This document shows positions 6,001 through 63,998 of a stretch of DNA of 64,000 nucleotides, piece by piece. Where the stretch lies: NCBI GenBank assembly GCA_023247725.1, contig JAHFFW010000002.1, positions 64,160 to 128,159 on the forward strand, in the 5' to 3' direction. The stretch is from Candidatus Omnitrophota bacterium. Its GTDB lineage: Bacteria > Omnitrophota > Gorgyraeia > Zapsychrales > JAHFFX01. The first letter of the stretch is position 1. Each line of letters starts with the position of its first letter. The position numbers and the translations under genes are program-made. The notes under the pieces are model-generated. The model ran no database searches, had not been told where the DNA came from, and saw nothing but the letters and a program-made list of their open reading frames with translations.

Positions 6001-9000
6001 CGTACACGAACGAGCAGCGGAAAAAGAATGGGAATCCGATAAGAATCGACGAGGCATTCAAAAGTAGAGTGGCGAGCCAGAGCGATTCTCAGGTCCAGAT
6101 CAAAATATGGAAAAATCGTAGCAAAGGCGAAACGGAATGGGTTTTCGTTGATCGCGGCAAAATGATGGTCAACCAACATGATAAAAAGAACGCCCAGCCG
6201 GATTCTTTCGGTGGCGCAGAAATACTGGATATTATGGGCGTGGATGCGGCGACCCAGAAGTACATGCGGGAAGAGATTGCGAAGCTGCCCGGGGACAGGA
6301 CGCTTGATTTTTCTATTGATCCATCGGAGGCACGTCATTACCGCTTCAACGCCACCAATCTCGCCGATATTGCTACGTCCGTTTTCACCGGTTCCTCCAC
6401 CGGTAGTAAATATGATACGCTTGTGGGTTACCGGTATATGAACCCCGACAGCATGGAGCGATTGGCCGATTATATGGTGAGTACGGGAGTGTTGCCCTTC
6501 GCCGACCTGGCTGAGCAAGCCCGCAATATGAAAGCAAATCAGCAATGGGAAAGGGCTATAGACAAGGGGTTTATAGTTTGGATCGTGGCGGATGCGGCGA
6601 CCATTCTATTTAAAGGTTTTGGGTGGTCACTGGTAGCTAGAGAGGCGGTCAAGGAGTCTTTAAAAGCAGGACAAAAAGTTGCATCCCGCCGTGCATCCAG
6701 CCTTATTTTTGAAAGAGTCCTGAAAGAAATGGGTGGGAACTATGCCAAACTAACCGCGAGACAGATTATTTCCAGAGCTTTGGCAACAGGCGCCGGTCGA
6801 TTAGCTGCAGAATGGGGATTGAATTCCATGTTATTGATGTCCTATATGGGCCTCACCGGTCAAAAGATGAGCATGGACGGTCTGGTCTACTTGCTCGGTT
6901 GGAGTTTTTTGGGCCGGTACGGGTTCTTTAGCAGCTCGGTTCGTGGAAAAATGTTGAACCCTCTGAAAAAGATGGGTTTAGCTCCGTTGGAACGAAGCGC
7001 CCTTACCAGAACTGGCGCGGTTGCGTCCGAAAGTTTCTTGAGCGGTATCACCAGCTGGAAGACTCGGTCTGTGATGGGCGGTTTTGGCATGGCCGCCTAC
7101 GGGATCGACCAGAAAGTATTAAGCGGGCTGGATGAGCAGAATTCTATCCGGTATTATTTCCGCAAAGGCGCCATTGCGGCAATTGCCATGATATTTTTTG
7201 GCCGCGCCCTTTTTGAGGGCGGCAAGGAGGGCGAGGCGGCCTTTAGCTTCTCTAAGGCGATGATTACTAAATCGTTCAAAGCCTTTGCGCCTTGGGCAAA
7301 CGAGGAAGAGGTCCAAGCAATAAGCAGGCGCCTTATGTACGACTACTTCGACAAGGGCGGCCTGTGGAACTATGGGAAAGGTACAGGATCTTTATTCTTG
7401 ACTCTAGCAAAAGAATCTGCGCTTTTGCCGACGGTGGGATTGGTCTATGGGGGAAAGAAAGCCGTCGACGCGTATGTTGATAAAAAAACTCGGGACCGGA
7501 TCCAGAACGTTTTATTAACCACCGCGACCATGGCCCTGGGCGCCGTAGTGGTGGGAGCAAAGAAAGGCGGAATACGGGAGTTCGCCAAAGCCTTCGGGGT
7601 AGGAAGCCGGGCGTCGGCGTATAACCTTGCCCGTAACATCGCGGTAGGAGCCCTGGCGGTTAAGACCGTGCATGAATTTTGGAAAAAGGGAGAAGACAGC
7701 AAGGCCGAGCTATGGGGAATGTTTTTATTGGCAGCCCTATTTGCCAAGCCATTATTGAACATCTGGAGCATTGAGCACATGGAGCTGGCGGATGACTTGG
7801 TGAAAGACGGGGCCGGGAAACTCGCGAGGCAAATGATAAAACCAACACCAATAGCAGGTGGTATACGCTTGACCGAAACTCAGATTAAGCAAATTGTTAG
7901 TGCCACCAAAACCCTTCGTACCACTGGAAATGTTATCGTTAATCTTGGGACCAAAGCCTTTTGGACGATCGCCGTCAACTCGGCCATGGGTAAGCCCATC
8001 CCCTTCCTCGGCTGGGCGACCCCAGACGACCGGATGACCGGCGTCAAAATGATGGCGGCTATGGTGATACTCCCTGGTATGGCAGAAGGGACCTTCAATG
8101 CCTACCGGTTGGGAGCGGGAAAAGGAATAGGCCTGGGAGGGAGTCGTTTGCTCGGCGCCGGGCTGGCCACCGCCACCGTTGCTTCGTCGGTGGGCCTGGC
8201 CTATGGCGGTTTTTCTATGGCCACCGCCACCGGTCGCAATGAAGATATCCTGGGCTTTGATCAAAAACTATTCGGTTACGGAGTGATGCTTCTTGGTCTT
8301 TCGACTCCGGGTGTCATGACCTCCCTTTATAGAGCCAAAAATATTGCCATGGGTCCTCGCCTTCTCGTCGCCATCTCAAACATTGTCAAGGATGCGGTGC
8401 ATATGGTGCCGCAGTTGATGGCATTTAATATGGTGATTCCCGTTGCTCAGCACCTGGCGGCGATCAAATCCCGGATTGACACTTATGGCGAGCAAGATGG
8501 CATTGATCGAAGTAATCCTCTTTATGGGACCGCGAAACTGGATGAGCAGGGCGATATTGCGCGAACTCCCGAGGCGGGAGGGTGGCGAGTGCTCGGCAAG
8601 ATCTTCGGTTATAACTCTTTTGAAGAATCAAGACAGCGCGAACGCTCCGAATTATTGGCCCAATATCAAGAAAAGGGTGATCAGCGATTATTGGATGCAT
8701 ATAAAGAATTGGGTACTAGTGAAGGTTACTGGATACGGGTTCTTTTCAATTCGGCTTATCAGGGCGCCAAGACGGCCCTGTACTTCGGCCCCTCGATGTA
8801 CGGGATGCGCTTTGTCCTGCATCCGGGGTTAATGACCATTCCGCTCATCGGGGAATCGATGTATTATCTGGGCGATGACGCTATAGGGATGGGAGACAGG
8901 GCGTTTAATTTCCGCAGTATTGAGTCCCTGAATGGCAACAAGTGGTTGCAAGGCTTCGCCAACTTTGCCAACAATTCGCAGAACTTCTTCTTCGAGGAGT

Positions 9001-12000
9001 TCTTCCGCGAGCCGATCATTTCCACGTTTTTCCGGATCGTTCTGGCGCCTTCCGGCTTGGGTCAGCCCCGTTCCGACAGCCCGTATTTCTCCATCTACAA
9101 CGGTTTCATGGAAATCGTTCAGGAGGCCGGCGACAAAACTCCGGAAACCACGTCGTTTGCCAAGGGTTCTATTTATCAAAAAGAGTGGAGCGGCAAAGTG
9201 AAAGACGCCGCCGGCCAGGCCTTAAGACAAGTGTCCTTGGAAGTGATCAAAGAGTTCATCGATAAACAAACACTTGAGGTAATACAAGACGGCAGTGGTT
9301 ATTTTAGTAGACTTGGCTTGGGGAAGTATTCAGATGCAGACGATATTATTGACTCTTTCACGGAGCAGATTAGAAGTATACGGATGGATAAAGATGCCAG
9401 GGATCAATTGCAGGAGGTTTTGGACCTATATTGGGGAGCCGGCGTTGTTGATGTGCACGACTTCTTAAATCAGTTGCAAAAAAATCCGATCTTGATTGCC
9501 CCGGAGGAATTGGCATACATCACGCGGGATGATCTTTTGGATGCGTTGGACCGAACTGATTCATCGCGCCTGAGTTCGAGCAAAAAACAACGTTATAAAG
9601 ACATCCTGCTGGAAGGTATGAATCCCGATGATATCGTTGTTCAACAAGGAACGTTTGTGCAACCCTGGGACGCCGCGGCCGCCGCTGGCCCCGCGATTGG
9701 ATTTGGATTCACTGTCCTGAGTCAGAGAACCTCTGGCGCCCTCAAAGGCGGGAGGCCTCGCGATGCCATTTTCATGTTGGCCAACACCGCCATTCACGAA
9801 GGCGGCGCGGGTTTTTCTTCCTATGGTCTAGGACGTCCCGGGTCATCATTCCCAAATAAACCTGTTTTATTCAAGGGCAGTAAGCTTCCTATGTATTCTC
9901 CAGACGAAGTTAATCACCTTTTGGACGAGCTTGCTGCGGATGAGAGGTTACCCCCCGGACGCAAAAAGGACAAGAGATTTGAGGAAGTCGAGGAGGCTAG
10001 GAATCATAATTTTGCTTTGGTCGGCGGTTTGACCGGGCGGTTTGCTTTGCGTTCGCAATTGCTGGCGCATGTGGAGAAGGCCCGTCGGGAAGGCCGCACG
10101 CAGAGCGTTGGCTTCCGCGGCGGCAATCCGAATCGTCAGGATCGCCATAATGATCCCCATGCCTATGAGATTATCCTGGTGGAAGGAATGGAAGCAGCTG
10201 GTTTAGGTCCGGCGGTCAATGATGGGAACAAGATTTATATCGATCAGGCGGCGTGGAATGGACAGAGCCAAGAAGCGAAAGAAAAGCTGGCGCAGGGCAT
10301 GACTCTGGAAGAAATCCGCAATGGAATCATCCAGCATGAATTCGAAGAAGTCGTGAAAGTCGCCCGCATCGGGCGTAAGTTGGGCAGACAATCCGGTAAA
10401 AAGATGTCGGCCAATCAGGCGGTCGCGCGCGTCAATCAGAGTCGGTACACCAGTTATCGGGCGTTTAAGTTCGGCCACGACAATGCCGCGGCTTCGCCGT
10501 TTGCTTCCACCTCCTCGTCGCCTGAAACCCGCAGCCAGAGTCAGATCGCCAATGATAATGCCAGGCGGGGTTTGGAAGTTCTTGAGCAGCTCGCCAGGGA
10601 AGCCATGGAAGGACCTCAGGCACCGACCACGGCTCAGCCAATGACCGCCGCTGGTTTGATCGAGGGTAAGAAACGAACGCCCTCCTATGCCTGCACCGAC
10701 GGGAATTGTAAGGAAGAAAATCAATTTGCCGCGGCGCCCTTTGCTCAGACGTCCGGTCCCTCCCGGCCGACGCTGCAGTTAGCCACGGTTGCTGCATTGC
10801 CTGACCAGAAGGAGCAGCGTCCGCAAGGATCGACCGACATCAGCAATCAGGGAACCATGACCGGAACTGGTTCGATGATCGTGGAAGATGATGGTTCTAC
10901 TTTCACGTATAAGGGGTTGGAGGGCTCGCTGGCTGTGACCCGAGGCCATTCTTACATGGACCCCACCCACATTAAAGTCGAGAATGCCGGCAGCATCGAG
11001 AGCAATGGTTCAACAAAAATTTATGACAGCAATATTGAAATAAAAAACGAAGGCACGATCAGCACACAGGGGTCAGGCGACATTCATAACGCCAATATTA
11101 AAATTCATGTTAAGCCGGGCGAAACAGTCGTGTTCGGCACAGGTTCGCAAAAGGCGCAAACGACCTTCTCCACCGGGAGTAATGCCTCAGGGAAAGCCCT
11201 GTCACCGGCAGCGACTGCTGTCAATTTCAGTTTACGGCCGAAGACATCGTTACAACGAAATTTCCATCTGGGTGGGGCCACGCCTCGCTTTAGTCCGGGG
11301 GTATCGGGAATGACGATTAAGGGACCGCCCGTATTGCCTCATTTCATCGGCCCACTTTCTTCCAACAACCCTTCCACCTCCTTCTCTAATAATAATACAG
11401 CAAATCCAGCTTCCCCAATTCAGATCGCCAAAGCGCAACCGGCCCAGCTAGCCACACCCAACGCTCAATCTGTGACCTTTACGGTTCCGAGTTCCGGCGC
11501 GATTCAGTTGGCCGGTACGGCAAAAACGCCTTCGACTCCGCTGGCCCTGGCAGCGCTCGCGGCTGTTATCGCCAATGAGCGAAATTCCGGCTCCGCCAGC
11601 CCCGCCGTTGACGGGGCCAACGTCACTGACCATCAACAAAAGATTGCCTTAAGTAGTACCCCCGACCACAATAAACCTGTCCGCCTGTCCTTGAATATGG
11701 GCGAGGGCAGTGTTGTGCTTCCGGCCACGCCGCAAGGGGTAAAATCCGTTGGCCATCCGATGTACGACGTGAGTGGAAGATACGATCATGTTGCTGAAGA
11801 CCAAAGAGGATATCTTGAAGGTCTCCACGGACAATTGGCCGATACGTTTGTAGGAGTGGAGGCAACCGCCAGAAAACTAGGTTTCGATAATTTGCCAACC
11901 ACAGCTCGCGTTGATCCCGACGATTCTTTTGCTGTCTATTATAATGAGCAGAAAGAGATCAAGGTTCAACCAGCCTTTCTCAAAATGGCACAGGCGTCGC

Positions 12001-15000
12001 GGGATGTCGTGATGGCCCATGAATTCGGCCATGCTGCTCGTCAACACAGGCAGCTAATGGAAAAGAATCCATTGGCTAATAAAGAAGAAGCAGAGTTAAC
12101 ACAATCTGAAGTCCATCAGTTGGAAAGAATTGTACAGGGAAATGAACTTCAAGCTGATCAAGATGCCGTAGACATTGCTGTAACAATGCATGGTCCGGAA
12201 GGCGTTGCTGAATCTTTGATGGAGGGGTTGTTTACGGCCCATCAAACTCAGGGCAGTAAAATAGAAGATGTTGTCAGTCAGCCAGCCGGCACAATCAAAG
12301 TGGGTTCTTTTGAATTGGCACCTTATTTCCACATCGTTACTCGAGTGGCTTATGCTTCTCAACGAGCCAATGATGCTGCTGGCAGAAAGTTGTCCCAACG
12401 ACAAAGAGAATCTCTGGCGCTGGCCAGGGAAGCATTGCAGACGACGAATACTCAGATTGAGGCTATTGTACAGAATGGTGGCAGCGTCGAAGGAACAAAT
12501 CTTTTGACCAGACAGCAGAATTTGCAGGCGCGGGTTGACAGTTTGGAAGAATCCCAGAGGCCGAAATTTGATGAACAAAGGACAGCGAACAAAGGATCGG
12601 CTGCGCCGACGGCGCCATCCGTGACCTTTACAGTTCCGGGCTCTGTCGCTATTCAGACGTCCGGCGCGAACGCAACCCATACCACGCAGCTCGCTTTGGC
12701 GGTGCTCGCGGCCGTTTCGTCCGACAAAGACCGCCATGATTCCGCCCAGGTGAATTCGTCCAATAATGCCGCCTCCGGCACCATCGCCGATGAGCGCAAG
12801 GTCGACTCCGCCAGCCCCGCCGTTGACGGGGCCAGCGTCACTGACCATCAACAAAAGATTGCCTTAAGCACGCCGGATCATAATCAAACCACCGGCGCCG
12901 CTCCGGCGAGCGCTTTAGAAAATTTTGATCGAGCCCTGGACCACGTTCTTAAAAACGGTGATCAGGATTTAAATGTACAGCAGCTTGCTTCGTTAACGCG
13001 ATCATTGATCCGTGATAATCCGTCTGGAGATAAATATGTAAGAGAGCAGGCGGCTATGCTGCAAAATCTTTCAGAGGCAAGTGACAACGTTAGGGGTGCC
13101 ATACATGCTCAGTTTCAGCATTTAGAATATTCTCCGGTGGCTATTAATGATGAGCAAAATCAGGCTCTGGCTCGGATGGGACAGCAAATGACGAACGGAA
13201 AGCCCGAGCATATTGCTGTGGCCGCATTTGGACTTAATGCCGGTTTGGGAAGGATAGCGATGCCGTTGGAACAGGAACCGACCGATTCCGATTTTGGTCG
13301 GGATTCGCGGGATTCTCAAACGGTCGATTTTTCCGTAGGTAACTCTAAACGACTGGGGCCATGGAAACGAATTGCCGTCGCGGCGCTGGCGGCGACGATT
13401 GGCTTAACCAATGCGCCGTCTGCTCCTTACAATGCCCCTCAGCAAAATCCGGCAGGAATTTATCAGACGGCGGCTCCGGCGGCTCAAATAGGGGGATTCG
13501 CGGGTATTAATGATGATGTTTATGGGAGCGAGAACGGTAATCACCGATCTTTATCCACACCACAATTAACATCAGAACAACCGCAAGCCAGAAGAAAGCA
13601 GGGATATTCGCCATCTCAATCATCTCCTTTGGGCAGTATTGAAAGCGCTCCGAATAATAATCCAACCAGGCCGACAACAATAAATGCCCAACCCATGGGC
13701 GGAATTTTAGCAAGAAAGTCCCCGACCATAAGGGTAATGCAACCGCCTTTAAATATATCTAGTAGCGCGGCTCCAAATTTTTCACGTCTCGATTTTGAGA
13801 AGAATTTTGCTTCGGATGCCATGACAGTAGGGACTATAGCACAGAGCGCGAGCTCTGTCAACGAGACGAAGGCCGACGCCGCCTCGGCAAAGTCTCAAGA
13901 TAATGCACCCGGAGTCAATACTGCCGACGAGCGCAAGCCCGGTCAATTCTCCCGAAGGTCTTTCTTAAAAGGGGCGATGGGTGCTGCCTTGACACCTCGC
14001 GCGACAGCGCAAAAGTTGATAACCGTTGCTTCTTCCACGAGATTGAATCCAGCGGATTATCAAAAAGTGGCTCAAGCTCTCTATGATACGCCTTATTTGA
14101 CTGGCGGTTTTATGGATGAAGATGGCAATGTATACTTAGAGGCCACAGATTTAAGGGGTGACTACCATTTTTTTTCCCAAAGTCCCTATACCTCGAGCCC
14201 CAACCAGGAGCAAGAAGAAAGAATAATATCATTAATATCATCTGAATTGCAAAAGGATCCGCAGGTTTCGAAATATCTCTCAAAAGCTTTGAAGGACAAA
14301 ACATTATCCGCCACCAGCCATGAGGAATTAAAAAGTTTACTTACGAATATTTTGACAACAAGAGAGTCAGAATTTTTGCCTAAACTTCTACCTAAAATGG
14401 AAAAAATTAGTGTCCAGCTAAAAGAAGTTGCAACGGCAGAGAAATTGGCAGCACAAGTGCTCTGGGAACAGCAAGAAGATCAGATTTGGCGGGCGCGACA
14501 AAATCGGCAAAATCAACAGCCGCAAGAAAAAATCCAAGGGACGACCCACGGTCTTAAGGATGGACTAGAAGACAGCCTCTTCCAGGCCCGGATTGAGTTA
14601 GACGCCACGGAAAAAACAATGGCTCTGATCAGCAGCAACGGTGGGTCGACGAAGGGGACAGATATGCAGACTCGTCGGGACAATTTAGCCGCTTTGGTGG
14701 CGAATTTGGAGAGCCGCTTAAAGCAGGATGGGGGAAATTCCGCCTCCCAAAGCCAAATCGCTTCAGCGCCGCCAACCCAAACTCTCACCCCGGGGGTGAG
14801 AGGCGGTCAAAATAACACCCATTTGATTTTGGCGGCGCTCGCGGCGGCCGTTGCGCCGGACCGCCATGATTCCGCGCAGGTCAATTCGCCCCAAGCCCAA
14901 GCCGTTGTCATCGCCGATGAGCGAAGGGCCGACGCTGCTCAGGTGAATTCGTCTCAAGCCAGTGATACAACAATTGCCGATGATCGGCAGGGTTTGAAGC

Positions 15001-57000: not shown

Positions 57001-60000
57001 CCGGATCTGCCATTGATGAAAGTGCAGTAGAAACACCGAAGTATCGTTCTCATCGCATCATCGGTAATGCGGTTAGTTTAGTTGAAGCCGGTGCCCGTTA
57101 CACGGTAGCGGCCATAGCTCAGATTATCCGCAATTCCAAGGTTCTTAGAGTGTCTGTTCGTAAGAATGGACAATTTAAGAATAAAGCCTTAGATTCCGAG
57201 ATCGATGGCAGTAGAAGTAAAGCTCAAGCCGTAACGTTAGGCTTTGAGCCGTATCGTTCTGGTAATAGAGAAGCAGGTAATAATCTCCGGTTCGCAATAG
57301 GTCTGGTCTTGGCGAAAGCCGTGACTGGAGCTAAAGCTGACTTGAGAGCGTTATTGAAGGTTCTTGGAGTTTATCTCGCCGAAAGGCTGGAAAAGGTCCG
57401 AGAAAAAATCTTTGGTTTTGCTGGTTCCCTCAAGGTCCGTATCAATCGAGTTGGGGCGAACGTCGGCCGGCAGGCCAGAGAGGGTTCTGACAAGCGTGTC
57501 AGCCATGGCACGGCTGCAGTCTTTACTGGCAAGTTCAGCAGTGTTGCAAGTAGGGTAATTGCCCTAGCAATAGCTAGGATCTTTACGTTACTTACAGTTC
57601 TTAGAGTCCGCCTGGCAGAAGTAATCAAGGTACAGGCTGAAGCTGAGAATAGCTTCTTGGAGTTTGCACTCTCTACCTTTGATAGTGGTAGAGTCGACGC
57701 ATTAGAGACTTCAAGAGACACTGTTACTAGTCGTAGAGAAGATGAACGTGGTTCTCAGCGTAATGTTCCAGTGGTGGAAGCAGTGGAAACTGCTGAAGCA
57801 CTGGCATCTGAAATTCTCGGAGTGCGTCAAGGTGCTGAAAAAGACCGAAATGCGACCGGGAATTCCGACGTTACCGGGAACGTAATTCTTGCTCAGCAGG
57901 ATCGTTCAGTTGGTGGAACTGGCAACGAAGTCAACCTTGCTGAAGCTGTTAACGTTAACGCCCTCATGGGTGATCGAACAACAGCCGCAGCAAGCAGTGC
58001 TTCCAAGCCTGAGAATTTCGGAGTGCGATTGGCCAAATGGCTCAACGTGATCCGAGAGTGGTTTTTGAAGACTGTCCCCTCGAGCCTAAACAGGATCGAG
58101 GTTAAAGCTTTAAGAACCAACCGCAAGACCACCAATAAAAATGTAGCTCCAATTGTCAACACTGAAACGAATACGTTCGTTTCAGTGGCTTTGCAAACTC
58201 TGTCTGTCAAAGTTCGCAATGCAAGAGAACTTTGGCAACGGAGAAAGTCTGTTTCTGCAGTCCAAGAGTTGATCTCTACTCAGATTTCCAACCTACGTCG
58301 TCTCATTCAAACCCTCAAAGAATTCGCTAACGTTCAATCAGTTCCTAACCAAGGAGGATTCCCATGGACAAGAATATTCGTTTTGACCATTTTGTTGAAT
58401 TCACTAAGAACGACTGCCTCTTTTGCGCAGGCCGTCAACCGGGCAGCAAACGTCGAAGTTTATACCTCATCGTTAACCACACCGGCCGGGTCTATGAACG
58501 ACATTTTAATAGCTGGCGCCTTGTCGATTCTGATGCTGAGTCTCATATTCGCCGCGAGGCCGAGAGCGCCAAGCTCGGAGGTGTCCCGTGTTACGTCACA
58601 CACAGCCACTTCAGCAATTAATCCTGCCGCAAGTATTCTTTCTGCCGCTTCATTAAGTAATCCTCATCGTGTAACGATTGATCAATCATCCATGTTTGAT
58701 TCTGCCCAAGTTGAATTGCTCCCCAACATTCAGGCCCAATTGGCCTACCTGGCCTTGAATGGTCAGAATGCAACCTCGCTGATCGATACCATCCTCACTT
58801 CAGAAACCGGAGACACCACCCAAGCCGAAAATCTCCTTCGGCAACTTCAACGTAATGCCCAAATGAGGCCTAGCGATGATGTGTTAAAGCCGTTTATTCT
58901 GTCGAGAGTCCACAGCATTAACCTAAAAAATCCGACCAGCAGCGACTTGAAATATATGATTTGGGCTTCCCGGAGAGGTTACCGTTTATCAAATGAGATG
59001 CAGAACTTAGTTGGCCGGGCCACAACCCTAATTGATGATGACGAAATGATGAAGGATTTGGCCGTGCAGATTTTGCCCTTTATGCGGGGTGCAGCGACCG
59101 AGCGCTTGGTCGATGTGCTCCGCCCCGAAGGTGTGGTTCGTTTCCTGGCTAGCGATACCATGCGTATCGTAGGCATCCAAAGGGGAGAGGTTTTGCCGGA
59201 ACGTGAAATTCTCGAAGTCATTGCGCTCAGAGTCAAGCGGGGTGTTTATGATCGAGATGCCTTAAAGGCGGAATTTGACCGGCTTTATTCCAGTGATTCT
59301 CAGCAGAATTTATTGGAAGGCATCTTTGACCGGAATATGGATCGTTTGGAAGCTCTGGCGAAGTTGCTCGAGGAAGATGAAGAAGATAAAGAACAGCAGC
59401 GCATCTTCTTCAAACCGGAAGATGACTTGGTCGGCTTGACGGTGCGTTTGCGCGAAGCGACGGTGGTGCAAGATGAGGACGCGCTTCAACCTGGTCACCA
59501 ATTCGACCAAGATTTATTGCATCGCCGCTTAAGGCGGGAAGGACAGCTGGAAATTCATGACCTGGAGCGGCAATACAGCGAATCCCTCAAAGAATTGGAC
59601 AAAAATTATGCCAATCGTCACACCAATGACAGCCAGAAGAAGGCCTACAATGACGATAAGAAAGATTTGGACAAGTGGCTGACCGAACAAAAGCGCCAGG
59701 CGAAAATCCGCCGTCAGTTGCAGGAACTGGGATTTGCCTTGCACACTCACAAGATCGTGCAAGGGGATCTGAGGCTGTTCCGCCGATCCTTGGGAACGAT
59801 GGTCTATGACGGTCTGTTTGTCGGTGAGAAGGACATCCTGGCGCTGTTGAAGAAAGACGTGGATGTTATGGACATGATGGCGCAATGGGATACCTTAGTC
59901 GATCCAGCGCAGCGGAAAGAATTTTACCGAGATTTCATGATCGCTCCGATGATGGCCAACCGCGGCCAATTTGATGTGAGCCAATTGATTCTCCGGTTGT

Positions 60001-63000
60001 CTCATCCGCAGCATATGACCTTGTATCTGGAAGATCATATCGAGCTGGTTATTCCGGCTCAGCAAGCGCAAGTTGAGAATGATGCCCAATTCATCCGCGA
60101 GCAGGCCCAAGTGGCGGTTGTGCCTGGCGAAACCAATGAAGACCTGGGGGACATTGCTTCCAGCCGGGGAGGACGAAAACTCATGCAGTCGCTGCCTCTG
60201 CCCAACGGGAATGTCTGCGTGGCCTCCATGCCCGAAGAAACCGCCCGCCGCGGGTTCAGGTCGGCCGGTGACCTCGAATGGGGCCTGAACCGATATCGCA
60301 TCATTAAAGATTGGTTGAAGCACACCTTCGGCCGGCCGCGGATCACGCAATTCATCAGCCCGCGGGGGCAGGAAGCCCTCGCGCATGCCGTGCGCTCCTC
60401 TAATCCTCAACGCACCCTGATGATGATCAGCGGCTTCGCCGGGGCAGTGACCAATGATATGCTGGACGAGTTACGATCGGTTAATTTCGCAAGTACCAAT
60501 AATGTGCGCACGATCCTGACGGTGGAGGCCATCTTCGACGCGATCCGCGCCGATCACGAAGAACCACGAGACCGGGCCAGGCTCGAAGAACTGCAAGAGC
60601 ACTATACAGAATATGTTCAATCCATTTCGGATCCGAGCTCAGATTATTTAAAGACTCAAACAGCCTTTGCCAACAGTTGCAGTGCGGCGGCAGATGCCAG
60701 CGATAAGGCTTATGTCGCTTACCGCCAACATGCGGATGGGGTGAAAACCCAGGGAAGAATCTTTCAGCTTTTGGCGATTGGGAACATGACGGTTAAGGAT
60801 GCGGTCGAACTGATGGAAGATACCGACAGCAAGGGTTATAAGGCCATCCAGGAAGAAGTTCAATACGATCTCGATAATCGCAAGACCCAACGTGGCGGCA
60901 AGCTGGTCAAATTCCGCGCCAGGGCCATGGCGGCCATCCGAGCTCAGAGAACGTTTGGATTCTATATCAAGAAATATGTCTTGGTCCCGCTGGCCGTTCA
61001 GATTGCGGCCATTGTGGTGCTTTATTTAGTGTTCCATGTCATCGCCGTCATGGCTGCAACATGGGGGGTTGTCCACCTTTCCTTACTGGGTTTTGAAATT
61101 GTCACCATCAATTTCGCTGAGGCTCTGACCTTCAGCCACGTTGTTGCATTCAATCCGATAGACAAAGCCCAAGCCATTCTACCGTTTATTCTCTCGGTCG
61201 TCTTGCTCATTGCCCGTCACGAATACGGCCATGATCTGCACGCCTTCATGGTGGGTGATCCTAATAAACAAGGAACAAATGAACCATCTCTTTGGAATTT
61301 ATTTAAGAATATTCCGCAGTATATAAAACCAATGAATCTTTTCGGGATGGTCTTCTTTGGCGGTCTGGGACAGGGCGGTTCGACGACCATTAATCCCAGA
61401 GTTATGAGGAACAAAGGATACCGGTTTGTCGCTTTAGGTGGACCGTTATTCAACATCCTGGGCGCCTTGAGCGGACTTATCCTTTGGGGAGCGATGAGTG
61501 TATTGGGTCACTTTGTGACCATCCCGGCCTTGATCATCTGGGGGACTAAGATCCTGATCCTGGTTGACCTTTACTTTGTTATCCCCAACCTCATTCTGGC
61601 CATCTCGGTCAAACTTCCGATGATGGGCGACTTGACGTCGGACGCGGCCCATATCTACTTCGGCAAAAAAGCCGTCATGAATGAAGACAAAACAAAGAAC
61701 CACATACCGTTCTGGTTTAAGATATTCAGCTGGGTTCTACTCGCCGGATTCTTCTATTTCCAATATGCTCATTTTTATCGTTGGGTTAGTGCCATTGGGG
61801 CCCGCATGGGATTGACGGCGATCAATCTGCCTGCCCTCCAAATCGCCGCAGCCGGCTTACCGTTGAAGGAAATCATGATCGTGATTGGCATTATTCTCTT
61901 GATCGCGATGGTGGTCAAGCTGAGGCACGGAGAACCCGGAAAAGCTACTGCGATATTTTCGTTGTTCGGATTGTGCGTCGGGATTTATCTCCTCATCGGT
62001 TCAAACCAGACGTTTACTGTCGGCGCGATGGTGACTGGCTTTATGAAAATTCTGGCAGCTGTTTCTACGACCTTCTTGACCATTGGAATCGTCCTCGCCT
62101 TGGCCGTCCTCATCGCTCAATGGGCCTCGAAGCACTCCTCACAAATTAAAGTGAAGGTCACCCGGGTGTTGCTGATCCTCGGGGTCGTGTCCGCGCTCTT
62201 AGGCGCTAGCGGAGTCCTCTATCGGCTTCATGCCGCCGGAGAGCCGGTACAGTCTTCACAGACAACGGTTGTTCAGCCTCGCGCCCCGCCGCCAGGGGGC
62301 ACCACCACGCCGACACCCGCGGCCGCCCAACCACCGGCTCCGGCGACGCAAACCACGCCGACCACGCCGGCGCCTGCCGCTCAATCGTCACCCGCGCCGG
62401 TCGCCGGGCAACCGGTCCAGCCGGCGGGAGCCGGGACTCAAGCTCCGCCGTCTCCGACGACACTACAAACCACCCAGCCGCCGGTTGCAAATCCGCCGCA
62501 GGCTCCGGATGCCGCGCAAGCGACTGCGAGTTCAGCTGCTGGCCAGGCCTCAGCCCCAGCTCCAGTGCCCCCGCCACCCGCATCCGGCCAGGCCTTTGCT
62601 TCTGCGGGGCCGCAAGGCTTGCCAGATCGCACTGATTTATTGATCGTTGCCGACACCGCGAAACTTTCGCAGGATCAAAAGGATGCTCAGTCTCTGCACA
62701 TTTATACATTGGATGAAATCATCTGGAAGTCAGTGGAGAATCTGAAACGCCGCGCGCAAGCCCCGGACGCCGCAACGAAGGATGCTGCCGCCGTCACCTT
62801 GGCCGGGGCTCTGGAGCCCCGCCAGCTGTTCTTTGGGAACGTGGAAAACGGCCGGGTCCTGATGCTCAAGGTTAGCGATGAGCCCAAAATGATCTTCTTC
62901 GACAATACTCTGGCGGCGGCCGGCGATAAAGCGGGGGTTGATCCTGCCAAGCGGGTCGATATCACCTATGTTAATCTAACCCGCGATAATAAGGTGTGGT

Positions 63001-63998
63001 TCAATCTTCCGGGCCACGGCGAATTTGTGGTGGACCAGGAAGGTGTGGCGCAGAAGCAGGTGAATACCCGAGCAAGTGCCGAAAGAAATCCGGCACAGCC
63101 GCAAAATAAACCTTCCCCCACCTCGGCCAAAGAAATCGTGTTGGCAATTATCTTGGGAATTGCGCTCATTCTCGCCTGGAATAGTTTCAAGAAAATAAAG
63201 CGGACGTACTGGATTAAGAGAATCAAAGAACTCCTGGCGCAAGCAAGAGGAGCGCTTACGGAGGGCAAATGGCCGGAAGCTGGAAAAGCCTTGAAAAAAT
63301 TGGAAGACAACAACGCGGTTCAGGATATGGAACCAGAGCAAAAGGAGGAAGTCCAATCCCTTCAAGAAGAATGGAATAGACAGAAAAAGGAAAAAGAGGA
63401 AGAGCAATTGGGTGCCCGAATACCTCCCGAAATTCTGGGCAGAATGTCGCCTGAGTTTCTGGCCCGGCATATCCGTGCCCGTTTCCATGAACGCATTAAG
63501 GCTAACGATGCCGATAAAAATCTAGACCCCGATGAAGCCAAGCATCAATTACGAGTAGTTCAAGAAGAATTGATTGAAGACTTAATGCATTCGGTCATGC
63601 TGGATGTCAGTTTGTTGGCCAAGGCGGCCGTCAAGATTTTGGAGGAATTTCTCAAGGCCGAGGAAGCCCAAAAAGACAATCGAGCCAACTCGTGGGCGGG
63701 CGAGACGATTTTTGAGGCTATTCGACGGAAGGCAGAGACCTTGATGGCCCAAGGCGAGATCGTAAGAGCACGGATGAATCCCGGCGAGAAATTAGCGGAC
63801 GGAGATTTGATTATCATTGATCGTCGTGACGGCATGAGGTTGATTTTCGGCGAGCATGCCTTTGGAGAAAACGACGTGCATCCCTATGCCTATGACCTCG
63901 GAGGAGGCGGACGGCAAACGATTAATCCACAGGATATTGACCATGGCCTGATTGATAAACTGGTCAAACCTAAGTCGGCGAAGAGTGAAAAGCCGGTG
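3..63998 (+). CDS. Internal fragment of a giant multidomain protein gene (at least 21,332 codons within the window; 5' and 3' ends lie outside the window)
   Basis: Seen in sequence: reading triplets from position 3 I found no TAA/TAG/TGA through 63996-63998. I re-checked the frame at both window ends, in AT-rich stretches (about 29700-29900 and 32400-32460) and near 41160. All + strand ORFs in the supplied track have start mod 3 = 1 or 2, none = 0. A stop-free frame cannot appear as a bounded ORF, which explains its absence from the track. The frame shows a strong GC-rich third-position bias (gcc/ggc/ccg/gtc/acc). The translation reads as bona fide protein with catalytic motifs. Inference: I translated by eye and cannot fully exclude one missed stop; the track's lack of any frame-3 ORF argues against that. 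Confidence 0.9.
2019..2750 (+). repeat. Three in-frame copies of a ~20-aa motif [LIV]PSDA[EQ]QD[DEA]SP[EQ]A[VA][EK][IV]A[KL]QK (copies at about 2019-2078, 2499-2558 and 2691-2750)
   Basis: Seen in sequence: ...ctgccgtcggacgctcagcaggatgactctcccgaggccgtcgaaattgccaaacaaaag / attccttccgacgccgagcaggatgagtctccccaggcggtcaaaatcgct / gtaccttccgacgccgagcaagatgcctcccccgaggcggccgaagtcgcc. The third copy is followed by LAEEAMAEGPPDH, which recurs as LAREAMEGPQAP near 10590-10640. Confidence 0.75.
6570..8470 (+). other. Hydrophobic, Gly/Ala-rich helix-rich region (at least 8 candidate membrane-spanning or amphipathic helices); possible polytopic membrane domain I
   Basis: Translation contains runs such as FIVWIVADAATILFKGFGWSLVA, MLLMSYMGLTGQKMSMDGLVYLLGWSF, IAAIAMIFFGRALF, VLLTTATMALGAVVVGA, LWGMFLLAALFAKPLL, MMAAMVILPGMAEG, LLGAGLATATVASSVGLAYGGFSMATA, GYGVMLLGLSTPGVM and LLVAISNIVKDAVHMVPQLMAFNMVIPVAQHLAAI. 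Hydrophobicity was judged by eye only. Confidence 0.4.
11440..12880 (+). repeat. Duplicated linker block (SVTFTVP[S/G]S..AIQ...LALA[A/V]LAAV...SASPAVDGA[N/S]VTDHQQKIAL) flanking an HEXXH module; 62-bp near-identical DNA at 11589-11650 and 12819-12880; a third degenerate copy at about 14760-14960
   Basis: Seen in sequence: ctccgccagccccgccgttgacggggcca[a/g]cgtcactgaccatcaacaaaagattgccttaag occurs twice, 1.23 kb apart. Both copies are preceded by SVTFTVP... and an Ala/Leu-rich LALAALAAV segment. The 14.8-kb copy shares LILAALAAAVAPDRHDSAQVNS. Confidence 0.8.
11950..12200 (+). other. HEXXH zinc-metallopeptidase-like module 1 (HEFGH at 12018-12032), possibly ImmA/IrrE-like
   Basis: Seen: ...RDVVMAHEFGHAARQHRQLMEKNPLANKEEAELTQSEVHQLERIVQGNELQADQDAVDIAV. 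This has HEXXH plus a downstream E-x-Q-A-D-x-x-A motif resembling the Glu third-ligand motif of ImmA/IrrE-type zincins (established family knowledge). The assignment is by motif only. Confidence 0.4.
13950..14012 (+). other. Internal twin-arginine (Tat) signal-like motif SRRSFLKGAMGAALTPRATAQ
   Basis: Seen: tcc cga agg tct ttc tta aaa ggg gcg atg ggt gct gcc ttg aca cct cgc gcg aca gcg caa. This matches the canonical [ST]RRxFLK followed by a short h-region and an A-x-A-like site. An in-frame Met (ATG about 13821) lies 43 codons upstream. It could be a vestige of gene fusion or chance. Confidence 0.3.
17927..18450 (+). other. Clan-CD cysteine peptidase-like module (caspase/legumain/clostripain-type His...Cys dyad): His codon 18135-18137 (FGAHGPY), Cys codon 18264-18266 (VLLESCFTGKG)
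   Basis: Seen: KAIVVYTKADNNG...IDFGAHGPYTADSMNYGKGGALTVGRWQALRGKVSGALAEKGRVLLESCFTGKGG. An H-G is followed about 43 residues later by hydrophobic-x-E-x-C. This is the spacing and context typical of clan CD peptidases (established family knowledge). Motif-level inference only. Confidence 0.45.
19215..19335 (+). other. Predicted transmembrane helix (LVMVPKLVAAVVAVALIVPAIASAAGAVG)
   Basis: A run of about 28 aliphatic residues preceded by WRGR. Seen in the translation. Confidence 0.6.
19340..20290 (+). repeat. Pro/Thr/Ala/Ser-rich low-complexity segment containing a 78-bp (26-aa) tandem repeat x ~2.9 at about 19535-19760 (VEPIHSPIGTEL[TA]APTAPDSS..V.PL)
   Basis: Seen: ccggtggaacccatccattccccgatcggtacagagttaacggcgccaacggcacctgactcttcc... 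is repeated with a few substitutions, then decays into a generic P/T/A-rich sequence up to about 20290. Confidence 0.8.
20585..20700 (+). other. Predicted transmembrane helix with a basic stop-transfer tail (ATGAAITGIGLLATGLAGYGVY-RQRRQRSARNR)
   Basis: Seen in the translation. With the helix at 19215-19335 it would bracket the P/T-rich segment on one side of a membrane. Confidence 0.55.
23660..23880 (+). other. TPR-like helical repeat(s) (EYREARDLDPDTFEYAAMLGEAYVRLGK...)
   Basis: The motif pattern A..Y..A..DP with small/large residue alternation is typical of TPR (established knowledge). Assignment by eye. Confidence 0.4.
26080..26460 (+). other. TPR-like repeats (IEDFRQALSLTKDPRD...AIEYFREAVDLDPGEKHYREQLANA...FFEEAVRHAPDNQDF)
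   Basis: About three consecutive 34-aa-like units with A/F/Y positions and [DN]P turns. Assignment by eye. Confidence 0.45.
26980..28150 (+). other. Long coiled-coil-like region (heptad-like E/K/Q/L-rich: ...QQRAELLEEINRLKTEADGAQIDKDQRKG...AELAEKIAEKRSALQALEGQIQVQQRELLAG...)
   Basis: Seen in the translation. No heptad scoring was computed. Confidence 0.4.
29337..29399 (+). other. Internal Sec-signal-peptide-like sequence MKALLVGALMAIPAFASA|HG with in-frame ATG (29337-29339) and upstream aggg purine tract
   Basis: Seen: cgacgcatagggATGaaggcgcttttggtgggggcgctcatggcgattcccgccttcgcgtcggctcatggc. This has an n-region (RRIGMK), a hydrophobic h-region and an A-S-A cleavage-like site. It may be a fusion vestige, an internal start or a TM helix. 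Confidence 0.35.
30100..31270 (+). repeat. Module with a paralogue at about 45300-46210 (shared ~65-aa segment: A[MI]RIA[AG]D[IM]AR[DE].....[QD]HR[AD]F[LE][EK]EFN[KR]RAD[ND][PQ][ED]Y...REVALVP)
   Basis: Seen: IVVAMRIAADIARDPNSASRQDHRAFLEEFNKRADNPEYLNSVKQAIDRTAQEHQVALVPVARQ (about 31090-31280) versus IKLAIRIAGDMAREAPESLLDHRDFEKEFNRRADDQDYVARLIKEIAASDREVALVPAFTAD (about 46030-46215). Confidence 0.6.
35280..35520 (+). other. HEXXH zinc-metallopeptidase-like module 2 (HELGH at 35379-35393), ImmA/IrrE-like pattern
   Basis: Seen: ISRIIMNLDAGGFRNQTAAAVHELGHHGLAQITNADLNNNKPEPQNGKLREQQMVGEGIAETYARDGL. This has HEXXH plus a downstream E-G-I-A-E-T-Y-A motif. Confidence 0.4.
40200..40420 (+). other. HEXXH zinc-metallopeptidase-like module 3 (HELGH at 40263-40277), ImmA/IrrE-like pattern
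   Basis: Seen: FMSILGHELGHNQVIALYKRFGPEDYREKGWVPVTKDFGVIEEFGGDLFAADYIDN. This has HEXXH plus a downstream E-E-F-G-G-D-L-F-A-A-D-Y motif. Confidence 0.45.
43800..44260 (+). other. Class I (Rossmann-fold) SAM-dependent methyltransferase-like module (PrmA/HemK-like motif I and post-II)
   Basis: Seen: DLTGKTVLIAGFGDGIQAILAKKKGAKRVIAVDNNAAVLDLARENTRLNGMGGQIEFKTAWAEDLTPDEIGPIDVLVANLPG. Motif I is a degenerate G-x-G-x-G-like glycine-rich loop (LIAGFGDG), followed by an acidic loop (AVDNN) and a DVLVAN[IL]P motif characteristic of PrmA-type methyltransferases (established knowledge). Confidence 0.55.
46990..47110 (+). other. P-loop NTP-binding (Walker A) motif GGEGSGKST (about 47029-47055)
   Basis: Seen: REKGTLIVGGEGSGKSTLTYALVKKGFNYGGQGMDML. 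The motif GxxGxGK[ST] is preceded by a hydrophobic beta-strand. No Walker B was assigned. Confidence 0.5.
51870..53034 (+). repeat. Pair of ~110-bp direct repeats (about 90% identical) at 51870-51981 and 52923-53034, encoding linker DAAMAQRRKE[DG]ST[IT]SYEPTQ.EQ.ATARHS[DN]AAMAA; they flank the CheR-like module
   Basis: Seen: gacgccgcgatggcgcagcggcgcaaagaagattcgaccatttcttatgaaccgacgcagacagaacaaacggccacggcccggcactccgacgccgcgatggcggcg versus gatgccgcgatggcgcagcggcgcaaagaaggttcgaccacttcttatgaaccgacgcagagagaacaatcggccacggcccggcactccaacgccgcgatggcggca. Confidence 0.85.
52300..52900 (+). other. CheR-like (protein-glutamate O-methyltransferase-type) SAM-methyltransferase-like module
   Basis: Seen: FKAVLLGSSNGDDPVTKALTM...RRIDVVGVDISAQAIAKAKENLQSGKFRIDAEYIQ...ADAVFINSILYEVPKSAQAEFFEGLKRNMKPGAFLFLS. 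This parallels CheR motifs (IWSAGCSTGEEPYS.A..., I.ATDIS..AL.KA..G.Y, FD.IFCRNVLIYF...Q..V...F...L.PGG.L). Established family knowledge, by-eye alignment. Confidence 0.45.
54880..55290 (+). other. Pro/Ser/Thr/Gln-rich low-complexity linker with short TSPS/QEP repeats, preceded by a weakly hydrophobic helix (about 54790-54850, WLVRVAGVATALLAF)
   Basis: Seen in the translation: ...QPPPQSPQGQVVPPTPAD...GPTSPSRPQEPSSQEREQTSPSQRGAPSQGAGNQQGTPATGD. Confidence 0.6.
55450..55770 (+). other. Peptidoglycan-binding domain-like module (PG_binding_1-type signature)
   Basis: Seen: GDRGPAVRTLMRILRVVFDGEDG...YDEEFARQALQLWQ...NVERAIVALQNAFDIREDGDVGPETWSLLGEL. This matches the G..V..LQ..L......DG.[FV]G..T..A[VL]..[FW]Q...L..DG.VG..T...L pattern of PG_binding_1 (established family knowledge, by-eye). 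Confidence 0.5.
56100..58900 (+). other. Compositionally distinct segment of the giant ORF (visibly lower GC; Ala/Val/Ser use gca/gta/agt instead of gcc/gtc/tcc). It encodes a Val/Ala/Ser/Arg/Asn-rich region plus two predicted TM helices (about 58363-58440 and 58490-58565).
   Basis: Seen by eye: e.g. gcagttaggaatgtaggagcgcggataacaaaaattggaagcagtgttgtcaatgcagttagcagtttctttgtagcagaagcatacgcagcagaagtagcaggtagtgaa. GC not computed. Frame +3 remains open throughout. Confidence 0.5.
60980..62235 (+). other. Polytopic membrane region (at least 8 predicted TM helices) carrying HEYGH (61218-61232); reminiscent of M50/site-2-protease-type intramembrane metalloproteases
   Basis: Seen: VLVPLAVQIAAIVVLYLVFHVIAVMAATWGVVHLSLLGFEIVTINF...ILPFILSVVLLIARHEYGHDLHAFMVGD...FVALGGPLFNILGALSGLILWGAMSVLGHFVTIPALIIWGTKILILVDLYFVIPNLILAISVKLPMMGD...IMIVIGIILLIAMVV...LFGLCVGIYLLIG...FLTIGIVLALAVLIAQW...VLLILGVVSALLGASGVLY. 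HEXXH next to TM helices plus a later N-x-x-P-x-x-G-D-like segment loosely parallels the M50 HExxH...LDG pattern (established knowledge). Weak, motif-level inference only. Confidence 0.35.
62240..62610 (+). other. Pro/Thr/Ala/Gln-rich low-complexity linker (PRAPPPGGTTTPTPAAAQPPAPATQTTPTTPAPAAQSSPAPVAGQPVQP...)
   Basis: Seen in the translation. It generates the Arg/Pro-rich artefact ORFs 62230..62643(+) and 62438..62656(-) in the track. Confidence 0.7.
63120..63190 (+). other. Predicted transmembrane helix (IVLAIILGIALILAW) followed by a basic stretch (NSFKKIKRTYWIKRIK)
   Basis: Seen in the translation. Confidence 0.5.

Follow-up and report, generated by a model that had tools for sequence, protein, structure and literature searches.

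A 64,000-nucleotide (nt) stretch of a Candidatus Omnitrophota contig (JAHFFW010000002.1, positions 64,160–128,159, assembly GCA_023247725.1; hereafter the window) is, over its whole length, an internal piece of one coding region that belongs to a gene of more than 64 kb and is bacterial in character. We put at about 70% the probability of the best overall explanation, in which this gene encodes a membrane-threaded, mostly cytoplasmic multidomain protein that carries a module derived from the M50/site-2 proteases. An earlier reading of the DNA letters, made without database searches (the original prediction), had proposed one open reading frame (ORF) that crosses the membrane many times, with modules alternately on both sides or, alternatively, with cleavable segments of a processed polyprotein. 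Scattered transmembrane (TM) helices in a giant ORF are already documented for Omnitrophota, and the phenomenon is known. New here are an orphan example, a predicted topology of clean hairpins, an atypical M50-like module within the chain and a number of zincin-like motifs.

One open frame fills the window

Frame 3 of the + strand contains no stop in 21,332 codons and runs off both ends of the window, whose remaining five frames hold 470–1203 stops each over the 64 kb. GC content at codon positions 1, 2 and 3 (about 0.59, 0.42 and 0.55) is even across every 6-kb bin. Because the frame lacks stops over this length and its codon-position GC is uniform, it is not the product of chance. Because it is open at both ends, and because searches of both strands of the window for tRNA and Rfam families found no match, the window is an internal fragment. 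The single ORF originally placed at 6570–63190 is therefore real, within the following longer frame.

3–63998, + strand: internal fragment of a giant ORF, 21,332 codons, recognised as a stop-free frame with uniform codon-position GC.

Strong hydrophobic segments far exceed shuffled controls

TM segments were called on the Kyte–Doolittle (KD), additive Hessa 2005 and Eisenberg consensus scales, together with counts of Lys and Arg (K/R) over 15 flanking residues per side; composition-preserving shuffles served as controls. A segment counted as strong at KD19 ≥ 2.1, Hessa ΔG ≤ ~1 kcal/mol and, where scored, Eisenberg <H> ≥ 0.68. Ten segments reach KD19 ≥ 2.1 against about 1 expected from shuffles (~10-fold), and 6 windows reach Hessa ΔG ≤ 0.5 against 0.23 in shuffles. 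At the looser threshold of KD19 ≥ 1.6 the count is near shuffle level (15 versus 10), so weak hydropathy peaks carry no weight alone. Peaks at 15.6, 25.2, 49.9 and 57.5 kb, which the original prediction had not named, have KD19 values of 1.64–2.11, yet lie over the Hessa cut-off of ΔG ≤ 2.0. The Wimley–White octanol scale with a threshold of 0 was too permissive (63 matches versus ~78 in shuffles) and was dropped, being retained merely as support for clustering at 6.6–9.0 kb. The segments and the stretches that they bound are as follows.

19257–19313 (aa 6419–6437), + strand: TM helix T1, predicted N-in/C-out and signal-peptide-like (MVPK, hydrophobic core, AIASAA), called on hydropathy and charge.
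19314–20597, + strand: Pro-rich loop of 428 amino acids (aa) between T1 and T2, 15.4% Pro, predicted outside from the opposite charge bias of the flanking helices.
19532–19732, + strand: 81-bp tandem repeat, ~2.4 copies with 81–85% identity, within the Pro-rich T1–T2 loop.
20598–20654 (aa 6866–6884), + strand: probable TM helix T2, Gly-zipper-like, predicted N-out/C-in, called on context rather than hydropathy.
29331–29387 (aa 9777–9795), + strand: weak hydrophobic segment T3, signal-peptide-like (RR-IG-MKALLVGALMAIPAFASA), KD19 1.74.
58365–58412 (aa 19455–19470), + strand: short hydrophobic segment T4, ~13 hydrophobic residues (Eisenberg 0.42), then SFAQA.
58503–58559 (aa 19501–19519), + strand: TM helix T5, predicted N-out/C-in, called on hydropathy and charge.
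60978–62222 (aa 20326–20740), + strand: polytopic cluster of ~10–11 TM helices, called on three scales.
62223–62642 (aa 20741–20880), + strand: Pro/Thr/Ala-rich linker after H10, the final cluster helix, predicted outside from composition and the charges flanking H10.
63132–63188 (aa 21044–21062), + strand: TM helix TL, predicted N-out/C-in, then KKIKRTYWIKRIK, called on hydropathy and charge.

Among the isolated helices, T1 (KD19 2.61, Hessa ΔG 0.1, Eisenberg 0.78), T5 (KD19 2.23–2.28, Hessa ΔG −0.13) and TL (KD19 2.16, Hessa ΔG 1.1) are strong. The polytopic cluster, with KD19 values of 1.9–2.7 and Hessa ΔG down to −1.8, lies far above shuffles, and no other 600-aa window of the ORF is as hydrophobic. 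T2 (AAITGIGLLATGLAGYGVY; KD mean 1.03, Eisenberg 0.62), moderately hydrophobic and with RQRRQRSARNR directly C-terminal to it, is plausible as a TM helix from its context. T3 has the hydropathy that shuffles reach by chance, and no partner helix was found for it within 1,000 aa, there being no other window of KD19 ≥ 1.2 in aa 9000–11000. T4 is a possible in-to-out partner of T5. In total, ~15 helices make up 1.4% of the residues, or 1 per ~1,400 aa. The original prediction had named the cluster at 61.0–62.2 kb and six isolated helices; the cluster is confirmed, the helices at 19.26, 58.50 and 63.13 kb stand as strong ones and that at 20.6 kb as plausible, and those at 29.33 and 58.4 kb have chance-level hydropathy.

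A second multi-helix cluster had been proposed near the start of the window.

6570–8492 (aa 2190–2830), + strand: hydrophobic region rich in Gly, Ala, Met, Phe and Trp, marked by its composition; putative membrane association.

This region is a true compositional outlier, with a grand average of hydropathy of +0.18 against an ORF median of −0.54, and its unusual hydrophobicity was correctly noticed. It holds ~11 moderately hydrophobic, weakly amphipathic segments of low hydrophobic moment, with KD19 peaks of 1.1–1.58 and Eisenberg <H> of 0.42–0.66; none passes a TM threshold, and the TM helices assigned there are not established. No Pfam family matched the region at E ≤ 10 and a word-indexed search with aa 2180–2830 found no homologue. 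Possibly it forms a domain that is polytopic or interacts with the membrane.

We also observed an Arg-punctuated hydrophobic segment, RVIALAIARIFTLLTVLRVRL, at 57543–57608 (aa 19181–19202), ~270 aa upstream of the T4/T5 pair. With KD19 1.91 it fails Hessa ΔG ≤ 2.0, and it possibly forms an amphipathic helix or one at the membrane interface.

Recognisable domains between the anchors

Families were searched with Pfam over the whole frame (in chunks), NCBIfam over aa 1–4900 and 18401–21332, and PHROGs over aa 1–18700. NCBIfam and PHROGs returned nothing in these ranges. In Pfam, TPR repeats and two methyltransferase domains were the recognised families, and a sequence search of the PDB with the whole frame returned designed TPR proteins and PrmA/PRMT methyltransferases alone.

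11850–12212, + strand: soluble zincin-like module with HEFGH (12018–12032, aa 4006–4010) and a downstream NELQAD, from weak Pfam matches.
26196–26411 (aa ~8732–8803), + strand: TPR repeats, Pfam TPR_12, TPR_2 and TPR_8 (E 4e-6 to 1e-5, near cut-offs).
35379–35393 (aa 11793–11797), + strand: zincin motif HELGH, with GEGIAE 34 residues downstream, from a motif scan.
40263–40277 (aa 13421–13425), + strand: zincin motif HELGH, from a motif scan.
43896–44117 (aa 14632–14705), + strand: S-adenosylmethionine (SAM)-dependent methyltransferase domain, Pfam Methyltransf_25 (E 1.8e-13) and PrmA (E 2.6e-9).
52278–52844 (aa 17426–17614), + strand: second methyltransferase-like domain, Pfam Methyltransf_31 (E 1.9e-8) and CheR (E 8.5e-5).

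The TPR region matches designed TPR proteins in the PDB at E 7.5e-5, and the first methyltransferase matches PrmA and PRMT chains at E 2e-5. HExGH motifs occur four times in the ORF (aa 4006, 11793, 13421 and 20406) where shuffles predict 0.03. The last of these belongs to the M50-like module described below. The HEFGH module draws matches to Peptidase_M48 (E 0.0027), M91 and M78, all under the curated Pfam cut-offs, and its downstream ELQAD resembles the third-ligand motif of M48. Neither HELGH site matched a Pfam peptidase family, and no paralogy was detectable among the three soluble HE[FL]GH regions.

Flanking charges fit hairpin anchors

Topology was derived from the positive-inside rule and the parity of crossings. 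The K/R asymmetry at the segments is strong: 4 before and 0 after T1, 0 and 6 around T2, 0 and 2 around T5, 4 and 1 around H10, and 2 and 7 around TL. Within the cluster, the K/R-rich loops (NPRVMRNKGYR, KKAVMNEDKTKNH, KLRHGEPGK and SKHSSQIKVKVTR) alternate with uncharged loops in a parity-consistent manner. Pro-rich stalks come straight after both of the best in-to-out helices, and the tandem repeat in the first of them encodes the 27-aa unit VEPIHSPIGTELTAPTAPDSSEAVIPL. From hydropathy and charge we infer membrane insertion and its sidedness: flank charges and parity fit a series of hairpins, each running in-to-out and then out-to-in, that would expose ~430, 30 and 300 residues.

In the arrangement that we propose, the hairpin at 19.26/20.60 kb would display the 428-residue, repeat-bearing Pro-rich loop outside, and T4 and T5 would form a tight hairpin at 58.4/58.5 kb. 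The polytopic domain of 10–11 helices at 60.98–62.22 kb would end outside, from where the Pro/Thr/Ala stalk and a domain of ~160 residues would lead to the last single span, TL (63.13 kb), and the chain back into the cytoplasm. The cytoplasmic stretches between these anchors would hold the TPR repeats, the two SAM-dependent methyltransferases and the three soluble zincin-like modules. A cytoplasmic location of the long stretches is suggested because the methyltransferase domains lie there and their cofactor is found in that compartment. The TM segments would then tether a mostly cytoplasmic scaffold at intervals, with few short surface loops exposed.

Hairpin tethers on a mainly cytoplasmic scaffold are thus the most likely topology, and modules that alternate across the membrane are not the best reading. 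The original prediction was right that several real TM segments lie far from the termini, and that the helices at 19.2 and 20.6 kb bracket a Pro-rich repeat region, the second of the two being supported by context. The positive-inside analysis that it had called for gave a consistent K/R asymmetry, but one that fits hairpins with a cytoplasmic bulk better than the alternation it had envisaged.

The polytopic cluster contains an M50-like module

Within the cluster, the motif HEYGH (aa 20406–20410, nt 61218–61232) comes straight after the hydrophobic helix AQAILPFILSVVLLIAR and opens a set of motifs known from M50 proteases.

61173–61517 (aa 20391–20505), + strand: M50/site-2-protease-like core with HEYGH, GDP, NPR and GGPLFN, found by profile comparison.

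An exhaustive phmmer search of 1.84 billion representative proteins with aa 20290–20760 returned four matches (E 1.5e-4 to 9e-4). All four align to the HEYGH segment and match Peptidase_M50 (PF02163); three pass the gathering score. Aligned with hhalign, a profile of these four sequences matched aa 20391–20505 with a probability of 97.8% (E 8.6e-13, 109 columns). A hidden Markov model (HMM) made from them scored 53 bits on the region against a maximum of 12.9 on 2000 shuffles, and was silent elsewhere in the giant protein, with the qualification that the query itself had selected the matches from which it was built. Across the window sequence and the four matches, 17 columns are invariant; they include the H, E and H of HExxH, GDP, a Gly-rich loop, the P and R of NPR, and GPxxN. 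The last of these lies in a helix downstream of HExxH, where VALGGPLFNIL aligns to VALAGPxxNxL with G, P and N invariant. In the predicted topology, HEYGH lies where its helix reaches the cytoplasm, the position of the active site in M50 structures.

The region is thus homologous to M50 proteases, and its proposed descent from such an enzyme, with correspondence to the N-terminal half of M50/site-2 proteases, is largely borne out. We propose that the first half of the polytopic domain derives from an M50/site-2 intramembrane metalloprotease that would have lost its LDG ligand, and that would have kept HExxH at the cytoplasmic helix end together with GDP, NPR and GPxxN. An Rce1-like protease of the CPBP family, the other candidate that had been named for this region, was rejected: EE...R and H...[ND] are absent, F...H occurs once, and no Pfam match was obtained at E ≤ 10.

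Full membership of M50 is incomplete, because the motif NxxPxxxxDG, which carries the third zinc ligand, is absent and the Pfam model scores nothing, and protease activity is putative. A candidate substitute can be named. D20522 (nt 61566–61568) is the sole Asp in any helix of the cluster and stands in the context D-x5-P-N (DLYFVIPN). BLASTP aligns FNLLPLPPLDGG with VDLYFVIP----N, so that D20522 pairs with the motif Asn. In the third-ligand helix, Asp and Asn seem to have changed places (D-x5-P-N versus N-x2-P-x4-D-G), and the helix of D20522 is possibly a rearranged ligand helix in which this residue would stand in for the LDG ligand. The original comparison of HEYGH and its neighbouring TM helices with M50 therefore holds for homology, and not for the LDG ligand or a Pfam M50 score.

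The gene is an orphan in the searched collections

Word-indexed searches with aa 20300–20800, 14500–15500 and 2180–2830 found no relatives, and an exact 36-mer had no match in viral, GTDB-genome and metagenome contig collections. Pattern and tblastn searches were equally empty for the M50 cluster in genomes, for the paralogous module (see below) in metagenomes and viral contigs, and for a 3000-aa piece in viral contigs, as was tblastn with aa 18401–21332 against plasmids and phages. Apart from the four matches to the M50 module, the gene is an orphan in these collections.

Counter-evidence and alternative readings

Beyond the self-selection behind the 53-bit score, several points weigh against our reading. 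For the M50-like module, neither the M50 nor the M50B model of Pfam matched aa 20300–20800 at E ≤ 10 or anything in the whole-chunk scan, and LDG, DG and N..P....D are absent from aa 20290–20760. The profile alignments end before NxxPxxxxDG, and BLASTP places a gap at LDGG. AlphaFold models of the cluster have mean predicted confidence (pLDDT) of 53.8 from the single sequence and 54.6 from a five-sequence alignment. At such low model confidence Foldseek was uninformative, finding nothing in the PDB at E ≤ 0.001, the MjS2P structure 3b4r ranking seventh at E 3.3, and a PDB sequence search with the HEYGH region was empty. For the topology, the TM calls stand on hydropathy and charge rather than on dedicated topology or signal-peptide predictors, and the segments at 29.33 and 58.4 kb and the region at 6.6–8.5 kb are not established as TM. 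Cys is nearly missing (10 of 21,332 residues, 0.047%), an unusual scarcity for a chain with a predicted cytoplasmic bulk, and one more typical of proteins that are exported. Lastly, the window offers no relatives, flanking gene or taxonomic marker, and Pfam found no SecA-DEAD or C39 domain in its 21,332 residues, the ORF extending past both ends.

The first alternative is a largely extracellular protein. If T3 were a real signal-anchor and T4 no span, T5 would be the next return span and ~9,700 residues (aa 9796–19500) would lie outside. The charges at T3 (4 before, 0 after) and T5 are parity-consistent with this arrangement. It would also accommodate the extreme depletion of Cys and a weak Pfam match to PG_binding_1 at aa ~18551–18582 (E 0.004–0.007, below cut-off), and a like display has been proposed for the archaeovorin-type 'coat' proteins. 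West-Roberts et al. (bioRxiv 10.1101/2023.11.21.568195) predict the domains of giant proteins to be mostly extracellular, although they themselves call such localisations unreliable. We nevertheless consider this reading unlikely: the hydropathy of T3 (KD 1.74) is at chance level, and the two SAM-dependent methyltransferases would sit outside, apart from their cofactor.

The second alternative, which we regard as improbable to a like degree, is a self-processing polyprotein. Signal peptidase I would cut at AxA sites, the M50-like module would cut the resulting type-II stubs, perhaps with help from the zincins, and separate cytoplasmic and exported products would arise from one translation unit. 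All three candidate in-to-out segments, T1, T3 and T4, have a positive N side and an AxA motif, and the short hydrophobic core of each contains Pro. The signal-like stretches are MVPKLVAAVVAVALIVPAIASAA (19245–19313), MKALLVGALMAIPAFASA (29337–29393) and RIFVLTILLNSLRTTASFAQA (58374–58430), with AxA sites of the form MVPK...AIA/SA in T1, MK...AFA/SA in T3 and ...SFA/QA in T4. T1 and T3 begin with Met-(x)-Lys; internal translation starts at these Met codons were considered and rejected, no Shine–Dalgarno-like sequence being present upstream.

The same chain also holds the M50-like module and the excess of HExGH motifs (4 versus 0.03 expected). M50/site-2 enzymes such as RseP cleave type-II (N-in) spans and remnant signal peptides, and type-II stubs would be natural substrates for the M50-like module, as they are for RseP. 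For other giant proteins, cleavage by their own C39 and S8 domains has been raised (West-Roberts et al., bioRxiv 10.1101/2023.11.21.568195). However, there is no experimental or comparative sign of cleavage, the hydropathy of T3 and T4 is at chance level, the canonical Asp ligand is missing from the M50-like module, and AxA is a common motif in a protein with 10.3% Ala. The signal-like segments are possibly relics, left where once-separate genes were joined in frame and their N-termini became internal; alternatively, signal peptidase may cut at them. The fully developed version, a self-maturing membrane polyprotein in which T1, T3 and T4 are cut by signal peptidase, the atypical M50-like protease clips the stubs and, with the three soluble zincin modules taking part, defined products end up on both sides of the membrane, is decidedly doubtful. 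If true, a cellular gene, from a lineage without sequenced relatives, would follow a maturation logic like that of flaviviruses.

That the protein is soluble or secreted, with most of the supposed TM segments forming the buried interior of globular or amphipathic domains, is very unlikely. The KD19 ≥ 1.6 count (15 versus 10) and the four peaks that fail the Hessa cut-off speak for this reading; against it stand the tenfold excess at KD19 ≥ 2.1, the 6 windows at Hessa ΔG ≤ 0.5 against 0.23, the consistent charge bias of the flanks and the homology to a protease that is itself an integral membrane protein. Finally, an assembly chimera or other artefact in place of one gene is scarcely credible: the exact sequence is absent from viral, GTDB-genome and metagenome contig collections and no relatives turned up, but neither chance nor a chimera could realistically yield 21,332 codons without a stop, the coding signature does not vary along the window, and there are very few internal repeats able to cause mis-assembly.

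Internal similarity

Self-BLAST of the ORF protein gave just 7 weak internal similarities, which rules out an adhesin built as a repeat array (Chlorobium or RTX type). The biggest similarity (33% identity) joins two modules of ~400 aa.

30135–31265 (aa 10045–10421), + strand: paralogous ~400-aa module 1, from self-BLAST, 33% identical to module 2.
44796–46205 (aa 14932–15401), + strand: paralogous ~400-aa module 2, from self-BLAST, just downstream of the Methyltransf_25 domain.

These modules matched no Pfam family and had no relative in metagenome or viral contig collections.

Comparison with known systems

Giant bacterial genes whose proteins span the membrane dozens of times have been recognised as a class only recently and are functionally unexplained, and the insertion and possible cutting of their chains is an open question for the class. 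To this class the present gene adds an orphan giant without detectable relatives among ~15 billion public proteins, and a parity-consistent set of hairpin anchors that amounts to a concrete, testable topology. The presence of an M50-like module and three zincin-like motifs in one chain offers H20406, E20407 and D20522 as mutable candidates for self-processing. If the protease were inactive, the giant scaffold would have taken up a stand-alone intramembrane protease for use as a membrane anchor.

Membrane polyproteins of viruses and eukaryotes that contain internal signal sequences, such as those of flaviviruses, offer an analogy only. As in these, signal-like in-to-out segments with AxA alternate with stop-transfer-like out-to-in segments flanked by K/R, and proteases lie in the chain. 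The window's chain differs in having no homology to them and no sign of cleavage, in being bacterial and in being ~10 times larger.

The module at HEYGH resembles stand-alone Peptidase M50 proteins (PF02163, ~200-aa members) in that HE[YF][GA]H ends the first helix and is followed, in the same order and spacing, by GDP, a G-x-G-x-G ... NPR loop and an (A/G)GPxxN helix. Unlike them, it lies ~20,000 residues into a giant chain, with 2–3 extra helices before it and 5 after. It has GQGGSTT in place of the M50 sequence GWGKPVP and lacks the NxxPxxxxDG of the stand-alone enzymes, and the PF02163 model scores nothing here.

The closest likeness is to the giants of Omnitrophota. The giant ORF of Velamenicoccus archaeovorus encodes 39,678 aa with 42 predicted TM helices, and giant ORFs of the phylum show poor conservation, carry many TM helices and have few annotated domains (Seymour et al., PMC10066038). 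Among Omnitrophota proteins of at least 10,000 aa, the median is 16 TM helices, or ~2% of residues, and 46% are 'TM-only' with their bulk cytoplasmic (Nielsen & Lui, bioRxiv 10.64898/2026.06.07.730766). The premise of the original prediction, that giant proteins typically have a single N-terminal anchor, is accordingly outdated, dozens of scattered TM helices having been reported (PMC10066038; bioRxiv 10.1101/2023.11.21.568195; bioRxiv 10.64898/2026.06.07.730766). The window's chain departs from these giants in having no sequence relative among the collections searched and in a somewhat lower TM density (1 per ~1,400 aa). Its 21,332 residues hold no SecA-DEAD or C39 domain, both common but not universal in Omnitrophota giants, and no dockerin or glycosyl-transferase domain; they do hold the M50-like module, and an M50 or site-2-protease domain goes unmentioned in either giant-gene paper. 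It shares with V. archaeovorus, the archaeovorin-type proteins and the 'TM-only' and 'SP+TM' groups a gene of tens of kilobases and mostly unique sequence, poor conservation and a small set of domains (TPR, methyltransferases, peptidase-like), TM helices spread along the chain at ~1–2% of residues (here ~15 helices and 1.4%), and a predicted blend of large cytoplasmic stretches and exposed loops.

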